From assembly GCA_937903605.1 (NCBI GenBank), contig CALCZC010000013.1:1-48989 (forward strand): a stretch of 48,989 nucleotides of DNA, read 5' to 3'. Source of the DNA: an uncultured bacterium. Its GTDB lineage: Bacteria > Patescibacteriota > Patescibacteriia > Magasanikbacterales > GWA2-37-8. A model generated the notes under the pieces. That model was not told where the DNA came from and searched no databases. It worked only from the letters and a program-made list of their open reading frames with translations. Shown piece after piece: positions 4,850 through 48,989 of this stretch (positions are counted from its first letter, which is position 1; each line of letters begins with the position of its first letter). Position numbers and translations under genes: made by a program.

Positions 4850-5377
4850 TTAATGCAATTCAAGCCCGATATTAAAAGAAATATTTTCTTTTTGTAATAA
4901 TTGCGATTTTGGTATATCTACATTTTTAATCCAAGGTATATTTTTCAAGATTGTTTCATAAGCAAGTAACGCGTCTCTGTCTTTGGCAACCCCAGGTAAA
5001 AAAAGAGCTTTTTTGTCCAAATTTAAAGAAAAAGAAGAAATCTTAATATTAGAAGGCGCGGTTTGGAGTAAATCTAGAAACTTCGGAGTAAGTTCTTGAT
5101 AATCTTGTCCAGCGACATTTATATTTTGTATGCTTTGATTAAGCTGACGAATTTCTTTGTTGTATTCCACAAAACTATTATCAACCAAAGATTTGCTTTG
5201 ATTGAGATTGTTAAGTTGTTGGTTGAGATTGTAATAAAAAATAGTTAAAAAACAAAGAAAAATCAAAAGCAAATAAAAAGAATTGCTTAAAAAATTCTTT
5301 ATCAGATTTATTCTGGTCAAGATTGCTAGTTCTTTCTTTTTATTTTTTGGCAATAAATTTAAATTGAGAATCATCAT
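4850..5377 (-). CDS. pilN: Type IV pilus assembly protein PilN-like
   Basis: N-terminal INLLP-type motif (LNLNLLP), TM helix, coiled coil and GVAKDRDALLAY; follows pilM. Confidence 0.8.
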   Translation of the reverse strand: MMILNLNLLPKNKKKELAILTRINLIKNFLSNSFYLLLIFLCFLTIFYYNLNQQLNNLNQSKSLVDNSFVEYNKEIRQLNQSIQNINVAGQDYQELTPKFLDLLQTAPSNIKISSFSLNLDKKALFLPGVAKDRDALLAYETILKNIPWIKNVDIPKSQLLQKENISFNIGLELH

Positions 5378-35555: not shown

Positions 35556-36368
35556 TCAAAGAGGGCTTTTGATATTTTTGATACTGGGATTAGTCACGTG
35601 AGTATATATTTGCGTAGTGCGGATATTGGCGTGGCCCAAAAGCTCTTGTACATAACGTACATCAACGCCGTTTTCTAGTAGGTGAGTGGCGAAACTATGG
35701 CGTAAACTATGAAAGCTAGCGGGTTTTTTGATCCCTGATTTTTTCAATGCTTCTTCAAATATGGCTTGCGCGGTTCTGACGGTGAGTTTGCCACCACGAT
35801 TACTTTCAAAAAGATAATCCTCGCCGTTTCGTTCACCTGTCAAAAAATATAAATCATTTTTGATATTTTCTGGAATAACGGTTATCCTGTCTTTTTTGCC
35901 TTTGCCTTGCCTTACTTTCAAAATTAGTTCATCAAGTAAAACGTCTTTTATTTTCAAATCAACAACTTCACTCACTCGCAATCCCGCTCCATAAGCTAGA
36001 GATAATAGTAACAAATGTTTTTTATTGGTAACTTGAGATAAGATATTTTTGATTTCTTCTTTACTCAAAACTTCCGGCAAAGAATTGTTTCTTTTGGCAA
36101 ATTTTAGATCAACTCTTTGGTTATTTTTCAAAACATCATGATAGAAAAATTTTATAGCGTGTAAATACAAATTAATTGTTTGAGGAGAAAAATGCTTGTC
36201 TTGTTTTGAAAGTAAAAATTGTCTGATTTTGTCTATACTCAAAACCTCAAAATCAACTCTCAAAAAGATAAAATAATCTCTTAAACAGCCAAGATAGGAG
36301 TCAATGGTCCGAGGGCTATAATTACGTAGTCGTAACTCAATCCGAGTTTTGTCTAAAAATTCTTGCAT
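35556..36368 (-). CDS. IntI-like tyrosine recombinase (short form, no I2 insertion)
   Basis: LRLRNYSPRTIDSY N-domain; catalytic GLR, GKGKKDR, HSLRH, LLGH and TQIY; C-terminal SPL as in IntI; divergent from a cassette array. Confidence 0.92.
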   Translation of the reverse strand: MQEFLDKTRIELRLRNYSPRTIDSYLGCLRDYFIFLRVDFEVLSIDKIRQFLLSKQDKHFSPQTINLYLHAIKFFYHDVLKNNQRVDLKFAKRNNSLPEVLSKEEIKNILSQVTNKKHLLLLSLAYGAGLRVSEVVDLKIKDVLLDELILKVRQGKGKKDRITVIPENIKNDLYFLTGERNGEDYLFESNRGGKLTVRTAQAIFEEALKKSGIKKPASFHSLRHSFATHLLENGVDVRYVQELLGHANIRTTQIYTHVTNPSIKNIKSPL

Positions 36369-36473
36369 ATTTTGATAAAAAAGAGTAAAATTTGTATATA
36401 TTTATATACAACAACATTATACATAAAATTCGTAAAATATACAAATTTAGGTATATTTCACGTAGTTTTATTC

Positions 36474-36493
36474 GTATAACAACCAGTTGCGCA
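36474..36493 (+). other. Candidate attI site
   Basis: GTATAAC-AACCA-G|TT, an inverted AAC/GTT core with a 5-bp spacer, 105 bp upstream of the integrase start. The first mini-cassette begins at the G|TT. Confidence 0.6.
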
Positions 36494-36639
36494 AAATTTC
36501 GCTTCGCTCATTTTGCGCAATGTGCGGCGCATAACTGCGCCAGCTGTGCTTCGCGAAGCTTCGCACAACTGTCGCATATCCAAAATGGCGATCTGATGAC
36601 AAAGTCATCATCTCACCACTTCGGATTATGCGCCGCACA
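36487..36639 (+). mobile_element. 153-bp gene-less mini-cassette type A, copy 1
   Basis: TTGCGCAAAAT...GCCGCACA, identical to copies 2-4; inserted at G|TT. Confidence 0.9.
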
Positions 36640-36826
36640 TTATACGCAATTCAAAAAATATTTTTCTTTTAATAAGGAATTTTGACAGGCTTTTTTAAAG
36701 GGGAATAAATTTGTTTTTTTATTTATTAGAAAGGGGTATAAGGTGTTTTCTCCGCTTCGCTACGAAAACGATTTATTTATAAGGGGAAAACGAATACAAT
36801 ACAAATACCTATCACGAAAATAATTT

Positions 36827-38629
36827 ATGCCAAAAATTAAGGATATGCCTAAGATTGACCGCCCAAGAGAACGATTTTTGCAAAAAGGGGCTGATGCACT
36901 TTCAAAGAGTGATCTTTTGGCAATTCTTTTGGGTAGCGGAATTAAGGGGAAAAATGTTAGACAGCTTTCGGAAAATATTATTAAAAAATTCGGTAAAAAC
37001 TTTTTAAATATCACCGTTGATGATCTTTTAGAAATTTCGGGAATTGGACAAGCTAAAGCATTACAAATTGCTTCCGCTGTTTCGTTAGTAAAAAGATTTT
37101 ACGACGAGGACAAAACAAACGAAATTGTTATAAAAAACTCTCAAGATGTTTTATCCCTTACTTATGATTTAAGAGACAAGAAAAAAGAACATTTAGTTTG
37201 TCTTTATTTGAACGCACGAAATGTTTTGTTGAAAAAAGAAATTGTTAGTGTAGGTCTTTTAGACAAAGCATTGCTACATCCGAGAGAAATTTTTTACCCT
37301 GCAACCGAATTAAACGCCGCCAGTGTAATTTTGGTTCACAATCACCCTTCGGGCGATTCTTCACCTAGCGAAAAAGACAACCAAATTATTGAAAAAATTG
37401 TGCAAGCCGGCGAGATCATGGGAATACCTGTTATTGATTTTATTATTATTTCGACAAATGGAAATTATAGTTTTTTTGAAAAGTTAAAAGGTCAAAACAC
37501 AAATTTTGATTATGTAGCGGATGGTGTACAGGGAACGCTTTTTAATCTGTTGGAAATTGAAAAATCACCTTACGAGGTAACGATAAAAAAGATCGAAAAG
37601 CCATATTTTCATTTTTCAAAGACAAAAAGCAATTCATTCCAGCTACAAAATAGAAGATATTTAGGAAACAAGCATAAATTACTTGGTTTTATTGAAGATA
37701 TTGTTTCTGAAAAATGCAATGGAATAAAATCATTTTGCGATATTTTTGCCGGCACAGGCGTTGTTGGCGAAAGATTTAATAAGCCCACAATCAAAGTTAT
37801 TTCAAATGACATACTTTTTAGTAACTACGCTTGTCTAAAAGCTTTTCTCGGCATAAACACAAACATAGATAACATTACGGAAAAAATAAAAATTTTAAAT
37901 AACCTACAAGCTACTGAAGATAATTATTTCTCAAAGCATTTTGGAAATACTTATTTTTCACTAGAAAACGCTAAAAAAATTGGGGCTATCAGAGAAGAAA
38001 TAGAAAATATTGCAGAATCCGAAGAAGAAAAAAACGCTCTCATTTGCTCGCTATTATATGCAGTTGACAAAGTTGCAAACACCGTCGGTCACTATGATGC
38101 CTTTCGTAAAGATTTAGACATGATTCAGCCAATAATGCTGTTAACGCCAGATATTGATTACTCAAACAATGCAAATAACGAAGTTTACAAGGAAGATGCA
38201 AATATTTTGATTAGAAAAATTTCTTGTGATGTATTGTATATCGACCCGCCATATAACTCACGTCAATATTCAGATGCTTATCACTTGCTTGAAAATCTTG
38301 CGGAATGGAAAAAACCAGAAGTCGAAGGAGTGGCAAAAAAAATGGATCGTTCACACATCAAAAGTTCCTACTGCCTCAAAAATGCGACGCAGGCATTTGA
38401 AGATTTAATCAGAAATGCGGATTGTAAACATATTTTATTATCATATAATAATACTGGGGATTCAAAAGACGGACGATCAAATGCCAGAATTTCTGACAAT
38501 GACATTTTAAGAATATTAAAAAACAAAGGAGAAGTTGAAATTTTTGAAAGAGATTACAAAGCCTTTACCGCGGGCAAGAGTAATGGCGACGGAAATGCGG
38601 AAAGAATTTTTTATTGCAAAGTAAACTAA
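36827..38629 (+). CDS. RadC (JAB) - D12-class N6-adenine DNA methyltransferase fusion
   Basis: PRERF...LLAILLGSG, HPREIF and VHNHPSGDSSPSEKD (RadC), then RRYLGNK, DIFAGTG and YIDPPYN (MTase), in one frame. Confidence 0.9.
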   Translation: MPKIKDMPKIDRPRERFLQKGADALSKSDLLAILLGSGIKGKNVRQLSENIIKKFGKNFLNITVDDLLEISGIGQAKALQIASAVSLVKRFYDEDKTNEIVIKNSQDVLSLTYDLRDKKKEHLVCLYLNARNVLLKKEIVSVGLLDKALLHPREIFYPATELNAASVILVHNHPSGDSSPSEKDNQIIEKIVQAGEIMGIPVIDFIIISTNGNYSFFEKLKGQNTNFDYVADGVQGTLFNLLEIEKSPYEVTIKKIEKPYFHFSKTKSNSFQLQNRRYLGNKHKLLGFIEDIVSEKCNGIKSFCDIFAGTGVVGERFNKPTIKVISNDILFSNYACLKAFLGINTNIDNITEKIKILNNLQATEDNYFSKHFGNTYFSLENAKKIGAIREEIENIAESEEEKNALICSLLYAVDKVANTVGHYDAFRKDLDMIQPIMLLTPDIDYSNNANNEVYKEDANILIRKISCDVLYIDPPYNSRQYSDAYHLLENLAEWKKPEVEGVAKKMDRSHIKSSYCLKNATQAFEDLIRNADCKHILLSYNNTGDSKDGRSNARISDNDILRILKNKGEVEIFERDYKAFTAGKSNGDGNAERIFYCKVN

Positions 38630-38634
38630 AATCT

Positions 38635-40470
38635 ATGAAAAAACCTTGGTCAATAACAACAACTACCAGAAGTCCTTACCGACTAAAAGAGCAACTGCGA
38701 GTATTAGTTGATAATTTTTCCGGCTTTGAGTGGACAAGAGAAAATCAGATAAATTTTCAGATTTCTTTGATTCAACACCGCTTATATGGACACAACGAAG
38801 ATACCGGTTTTTCTCAACAATTTTTAAACGGCTTGTCGGAAACACACAAAGAAATATTCACTGATTTTTCGCATATCTTAACTTTTGAAGAAGCTAAAGA
38901 GATATTTGATAGCAAAAATTACGAGGATCCCTCAATGAGAGGTCGACAATCCTTTAACCCATTTAAAAAATTCGGATTTGTGAGATTGAGAAAGAAAATT
39001 TTAGAAATAACACCATTCGGTGAGAATTTTTTGTCTAATGAGCATGATCTTTCAGATATATTTTTTAGTAGTTTTATAAAATGGCAATTACCTAATCCCG
39101 ATAATTCTGGCTACAAATTGGCTGACGGCTACAATATAAAACCATTTATTGGAATACTCCACCTTATACGCAAGGTGAATGAAAAATCTTTGGCATTAGG
39201 AGAAAAAAATAAAGGAATTAGTAAGGCAGAATTTTCATTATTTGGCCCCTCGCTAGTAAATTTTAATGACGTTGATTCATACGCTGAAAAAATTATTGGC
39301 TTACGACAAAAATTGAATGGAAAAAATAAGCAAGAACAAAAAGCTATTTTTGAGCAGTATAAAAAAACTTTTGCAAAAGAATTTCTCCAGTCCGACAATC
39401 CAAAAGGAGTAAATAAACTCCTTAAAAACTTGAAAGATTACGGCGATAATGCCATTAGGTACTTCCGATTAACTAACTATATCTATATTCGTGGTGGTGG
39501 TTTTTATATTGATTTAGAGCCGAGAAGGTCTGTTGAAATTAACGCCTTGCTAGATTTTGACAATGCACAATCCAAAACATTCGCAACTAAAGAGGCGTAT
39601 TTTGATTACATTTCCGACATTGCGCAACCGCATCTCCCTTGGGAAACAAAAGAAAAGTACATTGAGATTGTTGCCAAACTTATTGAAGAAGTAAAGAATT
39701 ATGAAACTGAATTAGAAAAAGAGCCCGTTGTAATACAGGACTATTCAAAATTGGAGGAAACTGAACTAAAAACATACATTGCCGAGCTTAGAAAATACCG
39801 ACGAGAATTACAAGATCAAGAAGCTCACAGTAAATCCCAAGACACAGAAGCAATAAAATCCTATATCCAAGAATTGGAAAATATTTTTGATGCCGATGAC
39901 AAACCTATACTGCTTGAAAAACTTTCATCGTTAGGCTTGCACGCACTAAACGATGCTCTAAAAATACAACCAAATTATCCTGTCGGAGACGACAACGAGC
40001 CAACATTTACAGCACCAGCCAACACGCCCGATATAGAATGCTTTTATAAAAGCTTCAATGCTATTTGCGAAGTAACAATGCTCACGGGACGAGATCAATG
40101 GTATAATGAGGGTCAGCCAGTTATGAGACATTTAAGGGATTTTGAAAGTAAATATAATGACAAAAACTCTTATTGCTTGTTTATTGCGCCAAAAATTCAC
40201 AGGGATACAGTCAATACTTTTTGGACTGCTATAAAATATGAATATGAAGGCAAAAAACAAAGGATAATTCCCCTGTCAATCGGCAATTTTGTTTCTCTTC
40301 TGAATATCTTGGTTAAAATAAAATCAGAAAATAAATTTTTGAAGCACAGCGAAATTTCCAGACTGTATGATGAAATAATCAATTCATCAAATTCTTTTAA
40401 CGATTCCAACGAATGGCTCAAAAATATTCCTGCGACTATTTCGTCATGGCAAGAAAGCCTAACATTCTAA
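38635..40470 (+). CDS. AlwI/Nt.BstNBI-family type IIS restriction endonuclease
   Basis: WSITTTTRSPYR, DPSMRGRQS and PTFTAPANTPDIEC...EVTMLTGRDQWYNEGQPVMRH; flanked by two MTases. Confidence 0.85.
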   Translation: MKKPWSITTTTRSPYRLKEQLRVLVDNFSGFEWTRENQINFQISLIQHRLYGHNEDTGFSQQFLNGLSETHKEIFTDFSHILTFEEAKEIFDSKNYEDPSMRGRQSFNPFKKFGFVRLRKKILEITPFGENFLSNEHDLSDIFFSSFIKWQLPNPDNSGYKLADGYNIKPFIGILHLIRKVNEKSLALGEKNKGISKAEFSLFGPSLVNFNDVDSYAEKIIGLRQKLNGKNKQEQKAIFEQYKKTFAKEFLQSDNPKGVNKLLKNLKDYGDNAIRYFRLTNYIYIRGGGFYIDLEPRRSVEINALLDFDNAQSKTFATKEAYFDYISDIAQPHLPWETKEKYIEIVAKLIEEVKNYETELEKEPVVIQDYSKLEETELKTYIAELRKYRRELQDQEAHSKSQDTEAIKSYIQELENIFDADDKPILLEKLSSLGLHALNDALKIQPNYPVGDDNEPTFTAPANTPDIECFYKSFNAICEVTMLTGRDQWYNEGQPVMRHLRDFESKYNDKNSYCLFIAPKIHRDTVNTFWTAIKYEYEGKKQRIIPLSIGNFVSLLNILVKIKSENKFLKHSEISRLYDEIINSSNSFNDSNEWLKNIPATISSWQESLTF

Positions 40471-40473
40471 CTT

Positions 40474-41250
40474 ATGGGTATGAAAACAAACATTATTTAT
40501 AACGACGATTGCGTAGATATACTCAAATTAAAAATTGATAAGGAATCAATTGATCTTATTTTTGCCGATCCGCCATATAACTTATCTGGCAACGGACTAT
40601 CTTGGAAAGGCAATAAAACTGGTGGTGATTGGTACATGGTAAATGAGGCATGGGACAGAATGTCCGCACCAGAATACCTGCAATTTACCAGAAAATGGAT
40701 TGGTGGTGCCTATCGTGCATTGAAAGACGGCGGATCAATTTATATTTCCTGCACTTATCACAATATCGCAGAAGTCATGATTGTTTTGAAGCAACTGGAT
40801 TTCAAAATCAATAATATCATCACTTGGCAAAAAACAAATGCGATGCCGAATATGACAAGACGAGTTTTTACACACTCTACTGAATTTGTAGTTTGGGCGG
40901 TAAAAGGCAAAAAATGGATTTTTAACTACGAAGAATTAAAGAAACTAAACCCCGACAAACAGAAAGACGGATCTCTAAAACAAATGCGAGACGTTTGGCA
41001 ATTGCCTCTCGTTCAGGGCAAAGAAAGAATCAGAGGAAATGATAACAGGGCTATTCACCCCACCCAAAAGCCAGAAGAAATGTTGCGTCGTATTATTCTC
41101 GCATCTTCGAACAAGGGCGATATTGTTCTTGATCCATTTTTAGGTAGTGGGACGACAACTTTTGTAGCAAAAAAACTTGGGAGGAAATGGATAGGAATAG
41201 AAAAGGACAAAAAATATTTTACGGTTGCGGAAAAAAGAATGAATTATTAG
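40474..41250 (+). CDS. beta-class N4/N6 DNA methyltransferase
   Basis: [14 protein letters not shown] and [11 protein letters not shown]. Confidence 0.93.
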
Positions 41251-41254
41251 AAAT

Positions 41255-43279
41255 ATGAACAATAATGAATCAAAAACAAACGGCTGGCTACATAATAGGT
41301 TTTTCCTATTTTTAACTTTTACTATTGCTTTGCTTGGTGCAAATTATTTTTTTACAGGAAACCTTTTTCCTAGCACTAATACAAAAGAGCTTTGGTTTTA
41401 CTCTGGAATTTTCATGGTTCTTTTTTCGATTCTTTTTATTGAGCCGTATTATACATCTCCTAAAAATGTTATAACCAACGCCATCCCGCTATTGCTTGTT
41501 TTTCTTTCGATAGAAAATACCTTTGAAAACAAAATCTTATGGTGGATTGCGGTTGCAATAATTTTAGCTCTACTTTTCTTTTCAATTATCGCAATTGCGT
41601 TAGAGGATAAAAATAAAAGTCCAAATCATTTGAAAAATAAATTTTCAGAATTGTTAAAAAAACTTGTAGTAATTGTCGGCAAGGGAAAAATTATCTATTC
41701 CGCAGTTTTTCTTTTATTCTTATTCGTTAACATTACATCAAAACCGGCAGAAGATTTTAATCAGATATTTGATAGTTATTTTGTGGTTTTACTAATCTTT
41801 TGGGGCTTAATTCTTTCTATTGATCCGAAAGAAATAAATAATACTTTTTCTTTAAAGAAAAAAATACTTAATGATGATGCACTAGGCGAAATTTTTGGAG
41901 TTCAATCTAGAAAAATATTTCTGGTAAAACTTTTTGAGGATAGAAAAGAAATAAAAAAGTTTGACATAGTAAGATTTAGATATTCAATGCAGGATTCAAA
42001 TGATTTTTTAATATCAGGCATTGTTTTTGACACATATTTACTTAATCAAGAGAAGTGGGCAAAGGTTTTGCAATTAGGGAAAATAGCAAAAAACAGTTCT
42101 AGTGCCGAAAAAAATGTTGTTTATAAAGTATCAAATAGCGAAGAAATCGACACACTGGAAAAAGAATTACGCACAGATCGCTTTGTTGGTATTGTGATTG
42201 AAGGCTCAAACATAGGAAAAATTAAATTTGAGTATTCAAAAAAACAAGAGGATTTACAAGAGGGAGATTTAATCGAACTAAAAACAAATGATAAAAGATT
42301 ATTTTATCAAGTAATTAACGGACTAACTGAAAAGGAATCTTTGGAACATCGAAATGAAACAAGTTTTATTAAAGGCGAGGCAATTCAACTTGGAGAATGG
42401 AAAAACGATGATCTCTCCTTTCAAAAATATGGCTGGGTACCTTCCATAAATACGCCTATTTTTAAAGCTGACACGTCTGATATTGAAGTGAAGAGTTTTA
42501 ATTATCCCGAATACAAACTTGGAATAATTCCCAATACTTCATTGCCTTCTGTAATTAACTTAGCTCAAGCAGTTAGTCATCATATGGCTCTATTAGGCGT
42601 TACTGGATCAGGTAAATCCTTTCTCGCTCGCGAAATTATAAAAGAATTAACTAATGATACAAAAATAATTTGTGTTGATTTTACAAGTGAATGGAAAAAG
42701 GAGGTTGAAAAAACAGCAATTACTCCAACAATATTAAACAAGGACAATATAGACACTTTTTTAAGCGGTACGGATAAAATTGGGATTGTTGAATTGCCCG
42801 CAATGAGTAATACAGTTGAAATTATAAGTGCCACAGAAAAACTTTTTGAAGCAATATTTAATTTTGCAAAAAAGAAATACGACGAACAAAATCCAACAAA
42901 AATATCTCTCGTACTTGAAGAAGCTCACACAATAGTTCCTGAAGAAAAATTTTTAGGTGTTAATAATTGGGATAGTAAGGCTATAGTAAATAAGATGGGG
43001 CAGATTGCCTTACAGGGCAGAAAATACGGAATAGGCTTACTTGTCATCGCACAAAGAACTGCAAATGTTTCTAAAACAGTTTTAACGCAATGTAATACAG
43101 TTATTTGTTTTCAAGCATTTGACGAGACTAGTTTTAATTTCTTAGGAAATTATGTCGGCAAAGATCTCGTTCTGACACTTCCAAATTTAAAACAATACCA
43201 TGCAATTGTTACTGGCAAAGCTATCAAATCAAATGTTCCAATGATTATTGATTTAGAAAGAAAAAAGGAGAAAGAATAA
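41255..43279 (+). CDS. Membrane-anchored HerA/FtsK-like (DUF87) ATPase
   Basis: About 6 N-terminal TM helices, HAS-barrel-like middle, HMALLGVTGSGKS, LVLEEAH and GRKYGIGLLVIAQR. Confidence 0.85.
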   Translation: MNNNESKTNGWLHNRFFLFLTFTIALLGANYFFTGNLFPSTNTKELWFYSGIFMVLFSILFIEPYYTSPKNVITNAIPLLLVFLSIENTFENKILWWIAVAIILALLFFSIIAIALEDKNKSPNHLKNKFSELLKKLVVIVGKGKIIYSAVFLLFLFVNITSKPAEDFNQIFDSYFVVLLIFWGLILSIDPKEINNTFSLKKKILNDDALGEIFGVQSRKIFLVKLFEDRKEIKKFDIVRFRYSMQDSNDFLISGIVFDTYLLNQEKWAKVLQLGKIAKNSSSAEKNVVYKVSNSEEIDTLEKELRTDRFVGIVIEGSNIGKIKFEYSKKQEDLQEGDLIELKTNDKRLFYQVINGLTEKESLEHRNETSFIKGEAIQLGEWKNDDLSFQKYGWVPSINTPIFKADTSDIEVKSFNYPEYKLGIIPNTSLPSVINLAQAVSHHMALLGVTGSGKSFLAREIIKELTNDTKIICVDFTSEWKKEVEKTAITPTILNKDNIDTFLSGTDKIGIVELPAMSNTVEIISATEKLFEAIFNFAKKKYDEQNPTKISLVLEEAHTIVPEEKFLGVNNWDSKAIVNKMGQIALQGRKYGIGLLVIAQRTANVSKTVLTQCNTVICFQAFDETSFNFLGNYVGKDLVLTLPNLKQYHAIVTGKAIKSNVPMIIDLERKKEKE

Positions 43280-43541
43280 ATGGGGTAAGCAAATAAAAGG
43301 CAAAAATTCCCTCCCCTTAAACCCCTTCCTTTTTGCCTTTTATTTGAAGAGAATAAGGAGTTTTGGATTTTGGGCATTCACCCCTAACCCCTCTGCCCAA
43401 AATCCAAAACAAAAAAACAAATTTATGATTATTGAATAAAAAGCCTGTCAAAATGAAATTGAATGAAAAATATTTTTTGAACTCGCTCCTTTCAATCGCG
43501 CCCCGCTGCGCTCTCGCCTCCGCTACGCTACGGCTCGGGGC

Positions 43542-43640
43542 GTATAACACAGCGTATGCGGTTCGGGGCTCGGCTCGCCCCTCACCCATATTTTTGCTCC
43601 CGTTGGTCGCAAAAACATCGCATACGCTGGAACGTTGCGC
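43542..43640 (+). other. attC site 1
   Basis: R'' GTATAAC, L'' CAGCGTATGCG, L' CGCATACGCTG, then GAAC-G|TT. CGTATAAC complements the cassette start G+TTATACG (36640). Confidence 0.85.
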
Positions 43641-43787
43641 AAAATTTCGCTTCGCTCATTTTGCGCAATGTGCGGCGCATAACTGCGCCAGCTGTGCTTC
43701 GCGAAGCTTCGCACAACTGTCGCATATCCAAAATGGCGATCTGATGACAAAGTCATCATCTCACCACTTCGGATTATGCGCCGCACA
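43635..43787 (+). mobile_element. 153-bp mini-cassette type A, copy 2
   Basis: Identical to 36487-36639. Confidence 0.9.
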
Positions 43788-43811
43788 TTATATGAAATAC
43801 ATCACAAAATT

Positions 43812-44612
43812 ATGATAATCGACAGTCATTTACATCTATCATACTTAGATGAAGAGAAAAAAAATCTTTTCGAAGTAAAAAAAGAACTTTTAGAATCAAT
43901 GGAAAAATACGGTATTGATTATTCGATTGTCATTCCCGATAACGTGCCAAACCCAAAATGCGCTGATACAGAAACAATGTTTAATATCATTGGAGACGAC
44001 AAACAGTTTTTTTCAATGGGAACCATAAATATTTTTCAAGATATAGAAAAACAAATATTAAATTTAGAATCACTGATAACGGCCAAAAAAATTTGCGCTA
44101 TCAAGCTTTTTCCTGGACACGACCCCTTCTATCCTGTCGATGAGAAATGCCAACTAATTTATGAATTATGCGCTAAACACGATATTCCAGTTGTTTTTCA
44201 TACTGGTGCAAACACTGGAAATGCTGATTGCGCAAAATATAATGATCCAAAATACATTGTCGAAATTGCAAAAAAATACAACACCTTAAAAGTTGTCATT
44301 TCACATTTTTTTTGGCCTAAGATGGAATATTGTTATGAGGCAACCAAAGACTTGAAAAATATTTATTACGATACTTCAGCAATGGCAGATGATGAAGTTG
44401 TTGAAAGTTCTGGTGGCTGGGATAAAGTTGTAGAAATATTGAAAAAAACTGTTTTACATAAACCTAAAAACGTTTTGTTTGGCACTGACTGGCCAATGTG
44501 CCCTGTCGATAAACACATAAAATTAATCAAAGATTTGGGATTAGATTCCAGAACCGAAGAAAAGATTTTTTTTCTTAACACAGTTGATCTATATAAACTC
44601 GAAATTTTGTGA
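43812..44612 (+). CDS. Amidohydrolase_2-family metal-dependent hydrolase (cassette gene)
   Basis: IIDSHLHL, IKLFPG, VVFHTG, ISHFFWP, YYDTS and LFGTDWP. Start moved to ATG 43812. Confidence 0.88.
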   Translation: MIIDSHLHLSYLDEEKKNLFEVKKELLESMEKYGIDYSIVIPDNVPNPKCADTETMFNIIGDDKQFFSMGTINIFQDIEKQILNLESLITAKKICAIKLFPGHDPFYPVDEKCQLIYELCAKHDIPVVFHTGANTGNADCAKYNDPKYIVEIAKKYNTLKVVISHFFWPKMEYCYEATKDLKNIYYDTSAMADDEVVESSGGWDKVVEILKKTVLHKPKNVLFGTDWPMCPVDKHIKLIKDLGLDSRTEEKIFFLNTVDLYKLEIL

Positions 44613-44620
44613 TGTACTTC

Positions 44621-44777
44621 ATATAACACCTGCCTATGCGGTTACAGAATTTTTCCAAATCCAATTAACGCCAAGGAATAAAAAATTCTTCCACCCAAAT
44701 TTTTATCTTTCTTTTCTTAAGAGAATTAACATCAAGGAAGAAAGATAAAAACTTCGCATCATCCGGATACGTTGCGC
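44621..44777 (+). other. attC site 2
   Basis: CATATAAC complements the cassette start G+TTATATG (43788); CTATGCG...CGCAT arms (imperfect, possibly hybrid); GGATAC-G|TT. Confidence 0.75.
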
Positions 44778-44924
44778 AAAATTTCGCTTCGCTCATTTTG
44801 CGCAATGTGCGGCGCATAACTGCGCCAGCTGTGCTTCGCGAAGCTTCGCACAACTGTCGCATATCCAAAATGGCGATCTGATGACAAAGTCATCATCTCA
44901 CCACTTCGGATTATGCGCCGCACA
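44772..44924 (+). mobile_element. 153-bp mini-cassette type A, copy 3
   Basis: Identical to copy 1. Confidence 0.9.
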
Positions 44925-44943
44925 TTATATAAAATTTTATACT

Positions 44944-45270
44944 ATGAAAAAATTGATTGTCGTTTTATCCAGCGGTGCATTGGTTCTACCAGAAATAGCT
45001 AATGCGTGTTATTTAACGCCCAATTTTAAGAATATTTTTTTAAGTGGCATTATTGGCCTGGTCTTATCCGCCATACTGATAACATTAATTCATAAAAAAA
45101 TAAGTAAGTTATTTGCAAAAAAATACAAATATTATTTGCTGTTTATACCAATTTACATAATAATGACCTTGATACTCATTATGATTATCCCGCTGGATAA
45201 AACGACAATTGAATGTGGGAATACTACAGGAAATGAGCAACTACCAGAAAATTTTGGCAAAACGCCATAA
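44944..45270 (+). CDS. Small membrane protein (cassette gene)
   Basis: 108 aa from ATG 44944, signal-like N-terminus and 2 TM helices. Confidence 0.7.
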   Translation: MKKLIVVLSSGALVLPEIANACYLTPNFKNIFLSGIIGLVLSAILITLIHKKISKLFAKKYKYYLLFIPIYIIMTLILIMIIPLDKTTIECGNTTGNEQLPENFGKTP

Positions 45271-45313
45271 ATACCGGAAATCAAAACGATATTTTTTCAT
45301 AGTATAAAACTTT

Positions 45314-45726
45314 ATATAACAGCGTATATACGGCTCACAAGCGAAATAAAATTATTTTTTCTTTTATGCGTGGAGATAACAACATTTTACGGTTAGACGG
45401 CGCAAATATGGATATTGATTTGACTTCCGGGGATAAAACTTCGTGGAAGCAAACAGAATGTCCATGGAATGAGGCCGAGGGTACAAATGAACACAAATGC
45501 GCCGTCAAAAATGTTTCTATTTGCAAATATTTCTGCGGAATTGAGTATTTAGACAATGTTTTGTGCTGTTATCCCAACAAAAATATGCTGGTGGATAACA
45601 AACAGAAAAAATAATTATATTTTTAATCGCTTGTTCGCCCAAATTCGGTTTCCGTTTTGTGTTGGCGCTCCGCGCAATTTTAACACAAAACTACAACCGA
45701 ACTTCGTATATACGCGTACATTGCGC
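45314..45726 (+). other. attC site 3, with a ~400-bp variable region containing an ORF
   Basis: TTATATAAC complements the cassette start G+TTATATAA (44925); GCGTATATACG (45322-45332) pairs with CGTATATACGC (45705-45715); then GTAC-A|TT. Confidence 0.75.
45366..45614 (+). CDS. Small Cys-rich hypothetical protein inside attC3
   Basis: 82-aa ATG ORF with 6 Cys; protein-like composition in otherwise structured DNA. Confidence 0.55.
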   Translation: MRGDNNILRLDGANMDIDLTSGDKTSWKQTECPWNEAEGTNEHKCAVKNVSICKYFCGIEYLDNVLCCYPNKNMLVDNKQKK

Positions 45727-45873
45727 AAAATTTCGCTTCGCTCATTTTGCGCAATGTGCGGCGCATAACTGCGCCAGCTGTGCTTCGCGAAGCTTCGCAC
45801 AACTGTCGCATATCCAAAATGGCGATCTGATGACAAAGTCATCATCTCACCACTTCGGATTATGCGCCGCACA
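45721..45873 (+). mobile_element. 153-bp mini-cassette type A, copy 4
   Basis: Identical to copy 1. Confidence 0.9.
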
Positions 45874-45934
45874 TTAAGTGAAATTGAATTTTGACAACGA
45901 TTGTAAAATACAAGTTCATTTATAAAATAACCTT

Positions 45935-46330
45935 ATGAAAATTTTTGTTCAATTTGTTTCAAGCTTAGTGGGCGGCATATTGTTAGGCATCATTGGACTT
46001 TTTATTGGCTCCATGATTGGCGGCAATTTCGGCTTCCCTGAATTCGGAGGTAACGTTGGATATCAAGCAGGAGGCCCTTTTTTCGGAATTATTGGAATTT
46101 CGCTAGGAAGCCTCCTTGGAATAATAGCTGCTAAAAGAATTCAAAAGGATCAGTTTATATATTCAATAACCTCAATAGCCGCCATTATAACAACTATTAT
46201 CGGCTTACTTCTTTTTGATTACAATATGCCGCCAGCTATTGGCTTTAGTATACCTTTGATGCCAGCAATAGTATTAATAATCGTCACAAATTGGCAAAAA
46301 TTTTTTAAAATTAAACTAAATAAAACTTAG
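45935..46330 (+). CDS. Gly-rich multi-TM membrane protein (cassette gene)
   Basis: 131 aa, about 4 TM helices with GxxxG repeats. Confidence 0.7.
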   Translation: MKIFVQFVSSLVGGILLGIIGLFIGSMIGGNFGFPEFGGNVGYQAGGPFFGIIGISLGSLLGIIAAKRIQKDQFIYSITSIAAIITTIIGLLLFDYNMPPAIGFSIPLMPAIVLIIVTNWQKFFKIKLNKT

Positions 46331-46345
46331 CCAAAATTCAACATC

Positions 46346-46432
46346 ACTTAACACGGGATACACGGTAAAGTCTTTCGCGGAAAGACTTTACTCAAATTGC
46401 TACGCAACTTCGCTTATCCCGGAACGTTATCT
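46346..46432 (+). other. attC site 4
   Basis: CACTTAAC complements the cassette start G+TTAAGTG (45874); CGGGATA...TATCCCG arms; internal hairpin GTAAAGTCTTTC/GAAAGACTTTAC; GAAC-G|TT. Confidence 0.85.
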
Positions 46433-46596
46433 AAAATGTCTCTCGCTCCGCTCGCTCCATTTTAGATAATGTGGCGCGTATATCTCCGCTGTTCTCCTCG
46501 CGTCGCTTCGCGACACTTCAGATAACAGCGGATAATCTGTAATATCTGTCTGACGACTTCGTCGTCATCCAGCTACTACAGATTATCCGCGCCACA
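46427..46596 (+). mobile_element. 170-bp gene-less mini-cassette type B
   Basis: TTATCTAAAATG/CATTTTAGATAA hairpin, then AATGTGGCGCG...CGCGCCACA|TT main stem with two branches; same layout as type A with a different sequence. Confidence 0.8.
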
Positions 46597-46659
46597 TTGT
46601 GTGAAATATTTTAGAAAAATTTAAATTTATATCATATTTATTAATAATATATAATTACC

Positions 46660-48665: not shown

Positions 48666-48694
48666 ATAAAACACTCCGATAAGGAGTGTTTTAT
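48666..48694. terminator. Bidirectional terminator
   Basis: ATAAAACACTCC-gataa-GGAGTGTTTTAT. Confidence 0.8.
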
Positions 48695-48989
48695 AGTGCC
48701 CGCCCCAAAGGGGCCCCTTCGGGGGTGTGGGAATCTGCTTCGCCTCTCGTCGTCTTCCGACTCCTCGGGCTAGCCACCAGCTCGCGGTTTTACTCGCCCG
48801 CAAGCTCGTAAAACATCGCTCCGCTGTTCTCATCCTGACGCGAGCAAACAGTTTTGCTCGCTCCCCAGACAAAATAACACAGACCAAAAAAGGTCTGTGT
48901 TATTTTGTCTGGGGCGGGAATTCCTCGTCGTCTCGCCGACAAATATCGGCTCGACTCCTTGCCCTGGGCAGCGTCGGATTCACACTGTG
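48695..48989 (-). repeat. Tandem GC-rich palindromic elements related to the tRNA-fMet-associated element
   Basis: The reverse complement of 48744-48778 matches 20578-20612 at 30/35. A perfect 23-bp inverted repeat lies at 48863-48885/48892-48914. Confidence 0.75.

Follow-up and report, generated by a model that had tools for sequence, protein, structure and literature searches.

Long inverted repeats at cassette ends as a candidate part of the folded recombination site in an integron-like array of Patescibacteria

A contig of an uncultured, ultra-small bacterium of the Magasanikbacterales (Patescibacteriota; CALCZC010000013.1) was analysed over its whole length of 48,989 nucleotides (nt), hereafter the window. 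The window has a G+C content of 36% and carries, from position 35556 onward, a tyrosine recombinase gene and an integron-like array of cassettes. The two ends of each cassette are complementary to each other over long inverted repeats, here called arms. Textbook attC sites have two heptanucleotide R boxes, with the crossover in the bottom-strand R' box (PMC2727003, PMC3053210), and I2, the additional domain specific to IntI integrases, is described as the reader of extrahelical bases (PMC4792948). In the literature searched, we found no description of integron-like arrays in Patescibacteria, the Candidate Phyla Radiation, or Parcubacteria, nor of extended stems at cassette ends. On balance, and with somewhat better than even confidence, we take the repeats to be integral to the recombination site, in its folded form, of a Patescibacteria integron-like system.

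The array integrase gene lies on the minus strand (35556..36368) and encodes a 270-amino-acid tyrosine recombinase of the XerA/IntI type, which lacks the IntI-specific insertion. The Pfam domains Phage_integrase and SAM_4 were assigned to it. The best model above its cut-off was NCBIfam XerA_Arch (225 bits; cut-off 220). The integron integrase model TIGR02249 reached 208 bits, below its cut-off of 265, and matched in two stretches flanking an absent segment; by profile comparison, I2 is absent from the protein. The gene is divergent from a co-directional array on its right, and an attI-like double-stranded core lies in between (36471..36497, plus strand), with the sequence TTCGTATAA-CAACCAG|TTGCGCAAAAT and the crossover between 36486 and 36487. 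In related loci, the junction ...ATA(A/G)AAACGAG|TT is conserved beside the integrase gene. By eye, attI is dif-like, with an arm TTCG(T/C)ATA(A/G), about 7 nt (AAACGAG; CAACCAG in this window), and then the arm TTNNNNGAAAT. Integrase homologues of 50-67% identity were found on many Patescibacteria contigs, and many of these contigs break at the array. A search of Rfam at gathering thresholds returned four tRNAs in the window and zero matches within the array.

The array features given below are all on the plus strand. The first unit is a gene-less mini-cassette of 153 nt (36487..36639) from a direct repeat family, and identical copies occur at 43635-43787, 44772-44924, and 45721-45873, four in all. 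In this mini-cassette, arms of 11 bp (TTGCGCAAAAT/ATTTTGCGCAA) pair around a 12-nt loop, and the hairpin site that belongs to the unit comes next. The fifth such unit, mini-cassette type B (46427..46596), has the type A architecture in a different sequence and likewise carries an inverted repeat. Mini-cassettes alternate with gene cassettes in this array. The cargo of cassette 1 is a restriction-modification operon (a RadC-Dam fusion, an AlwI-type endonuclease, an N4/N6 methylase, and a HerA-like ATPase); cassette 2 carries an amidohydrolase, and cassettes 3 and 4 carry small membrane proteins. Cassette 5 starts at 46597..46622 (TTGTGTGAAAT...), and its partner arm was not found up to the window end. 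Past the last open reading frames (ORFs), positions 48690-48989 form a GC-rich structured stretch with a 28-nt hairpin (48858-48919), which in composition (CTCGC/CGCTTCGC-type loops) is similar to attC loops and mini-cassettes. More of the array probably lies beyond the window end.

Gene cassettes are delimited by TT directly after [A/G] at the start and AA directly before C at the end. Every unit ends in a hairpin AAC...[G/A]|TT, with the crossover before TT. Units preceding gene cassettes end in A|TT, which deviates from the integron G|TT core. A metagenome contig (run X4) joins 36639 to 46427, so that cassettes 1-4 are deleted between A|TT and G|TT; four bases at this joint fit either side. 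The crossover position rests on the conserved attI G|TT, on this joint, and on repeats that run from TT to AA. Contigs from sludge and wastewater samples with the locus differ in cassette content by gains and losses, not by flips. Two joints that lead back into the array (43799 to 36733; 46608 to 46402) look like variant cassettes and not like circles.

Recounting of the repeats listed in the original prediction reproduced every coordinate and match count, and these pairs rank among the longest inverted repeats of the region in a repeat search. In cassette 1, the left arm (36640..36720) and the right arm (43411..43547) pair in four blocks: 36650-36666 with 43465-43481 (17/17), 36679-36695 with 43438-43454 (17/17), 36705-36720 with 43411-43426 (16/16), and 36640-36647 with 43540-43547 (8/8), the last of which we add. 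The right arm has a 58-nt GC-rich insert (43482-43539) at the place where other cassettes carry a mismatch at positions 9-10 from the crossover. The arms of cassette 2 (43788..43811 and 44603..44626) match in 22/23 positions (43788-43810 / 44604-44626); the left arm abuts the ATG at 43812, the right arm overlaps the last codons and stop of the amidohydrolase, and an extra perfect 17-bp block lies within the ORF (43855-43871 / 44559-44575). In cassette 3, the left arm (44925..44975) consists of block 1 (44925-44953), with the start codon inside, and block 2 (44956-44975), over codons 5-11. Its right arm (45190..45319) has block 2 in the ORF (45190-45209) and block 1 past the stop (45291-45319), separated by an 81-nt bulge. 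The match is 27/28 for 44925-44952 / 45292-45319, and the 20-bp block 2 is perfect. Cassette 4 has arms at 45874..45902 and 46323..46351, with 18/20 matches for 45874-45893 / 46332-46351.

The repeats run from the first T after the [A/G]|TT crossover to the AA of the AAC box. Over the first 20 positions of cassettes 2-4, cognate ends match in 18-19/20 positions, compared with at most 12/20 when non-cognate ends within the array are paired. Between the ends of cassette 1, the longest perfect inverted match has a length of 17, whereas 300 shuffles gave a mean of 7.6 and a maximum of 11. In cassettes 2-4 the mismatch falls at position 10 or at 9-10, and the left A always faces a right C.

For comparison with related loci (designated by L-numbers), 29 cassettes from 16 related Patescibacteria arrays were aligned in register. 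Boundaries were taken from attI, repeated units, and AAC...[G/A]TT anchors, since a simple hairpin rule gave too much noise in AT-rich DNA. In related loci, some boundaries were set with the help of the repeats themselves, and the attI-anchored subset is free of this bias. In that subset, 17 of 20 first units had a partner arm, one was ambiguous, and two had no partner in the available sequence. Wherever the array sequence sufficed, cassettes had similar end complementarity, anchored in the same way. Positions 1-8 from the crossover were paired in a fraction of 0.90-1.0, position 9 in 0.17, position 10 in 0.03, and positions 11-22 again in 0.90-1.0, compared with 0.26-0.40 for non-cognate ends at positions 12-22. 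At positions 9-10 of the top strand, A,A on the left arm faces A,C on the right arm, which gives T.T and T.G on the bottom strand. The median end point of the second helix is position 24. Past it, insertions, deletions, and small GC-rich hairpins shift the register, and more blocks follow. The total of paired bases per cassette was 21-103, versus 0-6 in shuffles. Gene-less cassettes also carry arms (L097 and the mini-cassettes). A need for the stems to close the cargo loop would make total stem length rise with cassette length, and no such rise was seen (Spearman rho 0.25, p 0.18, n = 29), in a test weakened by the many long cassettes that belong to one frame family.

The consensus of positions 1-11 is TTNNNNGAAAT on the left facing ACATCNNNNAA on the right. 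The proposal that each repeat is specific to its cassette holds only beyond position 11; positions 1-11 follow this family consensus, and cassette 1 belongs to a shared carrier frame described below.

Class 1 arrays from eight plasmids, with seven cassette types, were measured in the same way as the Patescibacteria cassettes. Anchored complementarity was 11 for aadB, aadA2, and aac(6')-Ib, 10 for blaVIM-2, 9 for aac(6')-29a, 7 for arr-3, and about 9/11 for aadA1. None of the seven extended beyond 11, and a second helix was present in none. Canonical complementarity had been supposed to stop at the 7-bp R box; in class 1 it runs over 7-11 bp, and five cassettes reach 10-11 or about 9/11. The difference between cassettes beside the short integrase (about 24 bp) and class 1 cassettes (7-11 bp) is nevertheless real.

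The attC-like sites follow the right arms. That of cassette 1 (43548..43634; AAC-AC-AGCGTATGCG...CGCATACGCT-GGAACG|TT) was assigned from sequence and folding, and those of cassettes 2 (44627..44771) and 4 (46352..46426) from folding. The site of cassette 3 (45320..45720) holds an 82-amino-acid Cys-rich ORF (45366-45614) in its loop, closed by extra stems at 45344-45365 / 45601-45622. In L180, the homologous site (533-985) keeps the stems around an unrelated membrane ORF of 98 amino acids, and in L015 a two-gene unannotated insert lies within one attC loop. The 3' halves (43605-43634, 44745-44771, 46405-46426; also L015, L169, and L180) share AAC(T/A)TC(G/A) about 15-20 nt before the crossover, and the 5' halves in the window and in the same three loci have ...CGGTT in common. 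Pairing of these two motifs leaves two bulged bases, which could be the counterpart of the classical extrahelical bases. Two L015 cassettes (2296-2383 and 5047-5148) differ in their bodies but have nearly the same attC, and their right arms end in the same 12 nt (ACATCATATAAC), so that one cassette is mismatched in its own R box. This pair suggests that the attC and an 11-nt arm were exchanged as a module.

The ends of cassette 1 (left, about 160 nt; right, 130-190 nt) recur in L008, L007 (twice, the second copy being more distant), L015 (twice), L099, L108, and L005. The cargo of these frames is unrelated and includes methyltransferases, a YhhQ-like transporter, an inositol-phosphate-synthase-like protein, an aminotransferase, and membrane proteins. 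The consensus structure of four such frames contains the R box and three long-range helices; 3 of its 56 pairs are compensatory, and few are broken. The frames are conserved between genomes whose integrases are only about 55-65% identical. Further paired changes were seen in the amidohydrolase cassette family, in which position 7 of L176 changed from G:C to A:T on both arms, and in L180, whose homologue of cassette 3 (80% protein identity) retains the ORF-internal 20-bp block at 19/20 with one complementary synonymous pair. As far as the compared sequences go, pairing is maintained in most copies, not in all.

Several smaller features were observed in these frames. The right end of cassette 1 includes a hairpin (43365-43405) with a conserved 19-nt loop, ATTCACCCCTAACCCCTCT, and its stem covaries between loci (GGATTTTGGGC, GAAAAATGAA, GGCGGGGCGCA). 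The loop is partly complementary to GGGGTATAAGGTG at the left end, near 36733. Positions 36733-36786 form a conserved leader (GGGGTATAAGGTGTTTTC-TCCGCTTCGCTAC-GAAAACGATTTATTTATAAGGGG) before unrelated cargo in L005, L007, L008, L015, and L099, and this leader had no Rfam match. A promoter-like site (36682-36711; TTGACA, 18 nt, TAAATT; 10/12) lies within the left arm, with its complement in the right arm. A low-depth contig from run X3 joins 36667 to 36743 and 36789 to 43461; it may represent a carrier frame with no cargo or different cargo, possibly with intervening letters.

The amidohydrolase of cassette 2 has hundreds of homologues, which allowed copies within and outside arrays to be compared. 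In the window, L169 (88%), L182 (86%), and L176 (79%), an attC follows the gene, and the inverted-repeat score between leader and 3' end is 20-21.5 (shuffle maximum at most 13). In L172, L174, L177, and L178 (65-73%), the gene is an ordinary chromosomal one and the score is 5-10, at shuffle level. These four copies bear out the original prediction that orthologues outside arrays would lack the repeats. The C-terminus ...LYKLEIL is native to and common across the family, the closest non-array orthologue ends in ...GTATTGTGA, and non-array orthologues keep ...TTGTGA; hence AAATTTTGTGA, which forms the distal half of the right arm, is an old piece of coding sequence. This native 3' coding end has its complement in the left arm that abuts the ATG (TCACAAAATT). 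In cassette 3 the relation is reversed, as the left arm has the start and first codons and the right arm their complement. From these sequences, cassettes 2 and 3 fit the copying of one cassette end onto the other, not arms that arrived with the gene.

Folding was predicted with DNA energy parameters on circular junctions composed of the last 45 nt of a cassette, its attC, and its first 45 nt. The junctions of cassettes 1, 2, and 4 were each predicted to form one continuous stem. The predicted energies of the bottom versus the top strand were -40.4 versus -35.3, -37.7 versus -32.1, and -41.2 versus -34.1 kcal/mol, a bottom-strand advantage of 5-7 kcal/mol. With repeats anchored at the crossover and such junctions predicted to fold continuously, the idea that the stem is prolonged in the circular or single-stranded cassette is upheld in the model. 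In the array context, the predicted fold left the right arm unpaired, with the L hairpin and the mini-cassette hairpin separate.

We therefore weigh the following interpretation, which we rate a little above even odds: the arms extend the R arm of a recombination site that folds as a single strand, and this extension is under selection and probably originated by templated copying. The two strands of an extended R-arm helix would sit at the two cassette ends. This helix would comprise 8 bp from the crossover, the 2-nt mismatch at 9-10, a clamp of about 12-16 bp, and often more blocks. When the cassette is single-stranded, as an excised circle or exposed single-stranded DNA, its ends would pair and continue the attC hairpin, which runs from the L box through an unpaired spacer to the R box. 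The clamp may stabilise an AT-rich R box too weak by itself, and would fix the mismatch as an internal loop with T.T and T.G on the bottom strand and A.A and A.C on the top strand. Because of this difference, the bottom strand should fold better and the arms would be non-equivalent. An integrase without I2 could use such unequal strands and arms to choose strand or orientation. The 270-amino-acid Xer-like integrase would bind the arm TTNNNNGAAAT, and one strand would be exchanged at [A/G]|TT with the dif-like attI or another attC. The arms probably arose when one cassette end served as the template for the other, after which selection or conversion between the arms would have kept them paired.

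Several observations weigh against this interpretation. Excised circles and folded single-stranded DNA are predicted from assembled contigs. The arm that follows an attC in the array belongs to the next cassette and cannot prolong that attC, so that the full R helix would form only on the circle or by pairing across the cargo, and the latter would give three-way junctions. Outside positions 9-10 the mismatches show no strand bias (23 top-strand G.T versus 21 bottom-strand). Block 1 of L180 has two uncompensated changes, and arms are degenerate in some copies (15/24 in L181; partly decayed in L170 and L179). The classical control is small and covers seven cassette types, all of them from mobile class 1 integrons.

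The decayed copies and uncompensated changes would be expected if the arms were functionless scars of templated palindrome growth, produced by template switching or fold-back priming at a hairpin and decaying once made. The cassette 2 left arm that complements a native coding end and the perfect 17- and 20-bp blocks inside ORFs point the same way. Quasipalindrome template-switch mutagenesis would by analogy yield an exact complement on the opposite arm, even in coding sequence, as in cassettes 2 and 3; this likeness concerns origin only, and as a mutational process it leaves the conserved mismatch and fixed helix length unexplained. A scar of cassette genesis had been suggested for the repeats at the outset, and the part of that suggestion that stands is a templated origin, for cassette 2. 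As a full account it misfits the uniform arrangement of 8 bp, a 2-nt mismatch, and 12-16 bp in 29 unrelated cassettes, the invariant A,A versus A,C mismatch, which decay would not give, the compensatory changes, and carrier frames conserved across genomes with divergent integrases. We consider functionless scars unlikely.

Equally improbable in our view is a bolder proposal, in which the array is a proto-integron. The R helix at every crossover would be built from the ends of the downstream unit across its cargo, with mini-cassettes providing a ready local hairpin. The I2-less Xer-like integrase would recombine three-way junctions in the array and on circles, and the same fold-back pairing would make cassettes by copying the 3' end of a gene before its start codon.

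A role at the RNA level, with the transcript ends pairing to form a processing stem of the RNase III type or to control stability or translation and with the crossover position being secondary, is slightly less probable again. Stems of 22-24 bp are close to the shortest that RNase III takes as substrate. Nearly all cargo genes are co-oriented with the array, and the arms cover the start codon of cassette 3 and the stop codon of cassette 2. However, the stems start at the first base past the crossover and include the R box, gene-less cassettes carry arms too, and the conserved mismatch is less favourable in the sense strand (A.A and A.C) than in the antisense strand. A look through RNA runs found none that contained the locus.

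An invertible-segment switch, in which the recombinase flips each cassette via its repeats, is very improbable. Inverted repeats do flank each gene beside a tyrosine recombinase, and in L099 (1634-2228, array orientation) the second cassette and its attC are inverted, with AAC followed directly by GTT. Yet no opposite-strand joints at the arms were present in contigs of four runs (a weak point, since contigs drop rare variants), the arms are cassette-specific beyond position 11 and differ in a fixed manner (AAAT versus ATGT), and between samples cassettes are gained or lost, not flipped. The first cassette of L099 has perfectly symmetrical arms without the mismatch at 9-10.

Three further candidates were rejected. 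A mobile element inserted into a palindrome does not fit, as the complementary pair flanks the cargo and not the attC. A transposon or miniature inverted-repeat transposable element was set aside on the flanks ...A|TT and AA|C..., the lack of duplications, and repeats that differ between cassettes beyond position 11; domain annotation found no transposase gene in the cassettes. Chance in AT-rich DNA has a negligible probability given the shuffles, the non-cognate ends, and the recurrence in 29 cassettes.

The array can be compared with several known systems. Judged by sequence, it works like an integron, with an integrase that passes the XerA model and fails the integron-integrase model. It shares with integrons a divergent tyrosine recombinase, an attI, and a co-directional array. 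Units end in an imperfect palindrome from ...AAC to G|TT, with the crossover before TT, and the first bases of a cassette complement the inverse core of that same cassette, which agrees with passage through a circular form. In classical integrons the folded bottom strand is the substrate and replication resolves a single strand exchange; in the array, the bottom strand is the one predicted to be more stable. It differs in an end complementarity of about 24 bp and up to 100, in contrast to the 7-11 bp of the class 1 cassettes tested, in the fixed 2-nt mismatch at 9-10, in an integrase without the I2 insertion, in gene-less mini-cassettes that alternate with gene cassettes, and in genes that may sit in the attC loop.

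Xer-type recombinases act on sites of 28-30 bp, made up of two 11-bp arms and a centre of 6-8 bp. The likeness to Xer/dif systems lies in a recombinase that passes the XerA model, an attI of the form arm, about 7 nt, arm, and cassette starts that resemble dif arms by eye, a comparison of sequence alone. The cassette start TTATGTGAAAT (L008, L110) matches in 10/11 bases TTATGTTAAAT, the right arm of Escherichia coli dif, and the left arm of L007 attI, GTGCGCATA, is nearly the XerC arm of that site. In a search with this dif sequence, 5424 of 5426 genomes gave matches, and most E. coli chromosomes carried it at 100% identity. In CTX phage, the attP(+) hairpin recombines with dif1 as a folded single strand with a double-stranded site, through one strand exchange. 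The present array differs in its many cassettes with cassette-specific stems and in having no phage genes. Acinetobacter pdif modules are genes bounded by inverted, conserved 28-bp double-stranded Xer-type sites. Compared by description, they are alike in the inverted Xer-type sites that bound gene modules; the pdif sites differ in that they do not form stems specific to a module, and the modules have no attC-like hairpin between them.

The finding touches two open questions of integron biology, namely attC recombination before I2 and the making of gene cassettes. How attC sites were recombined before the I2 domain existed has been described as a chicken-and-egg paradox (PMC4792948). Arrays of this type will escape tools whose definition of a cassette is based on a 7-bp R box and an IntI model. 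A gene family that exists both as armed cassettes and as armless chromosomal genes opens the birth of cassettes to comparative study. If true, the proto-integron reading would show both attC recombination before I2 and cassette birth. In these Patescibacteria, a natural and widespread system combines a Xer-sized integrase without I2 with a long extra stem that has a strand-specific mismatch just outside the R box, and this stem and mismatch are a testable candidate for an alternative recognition or stabilising device.

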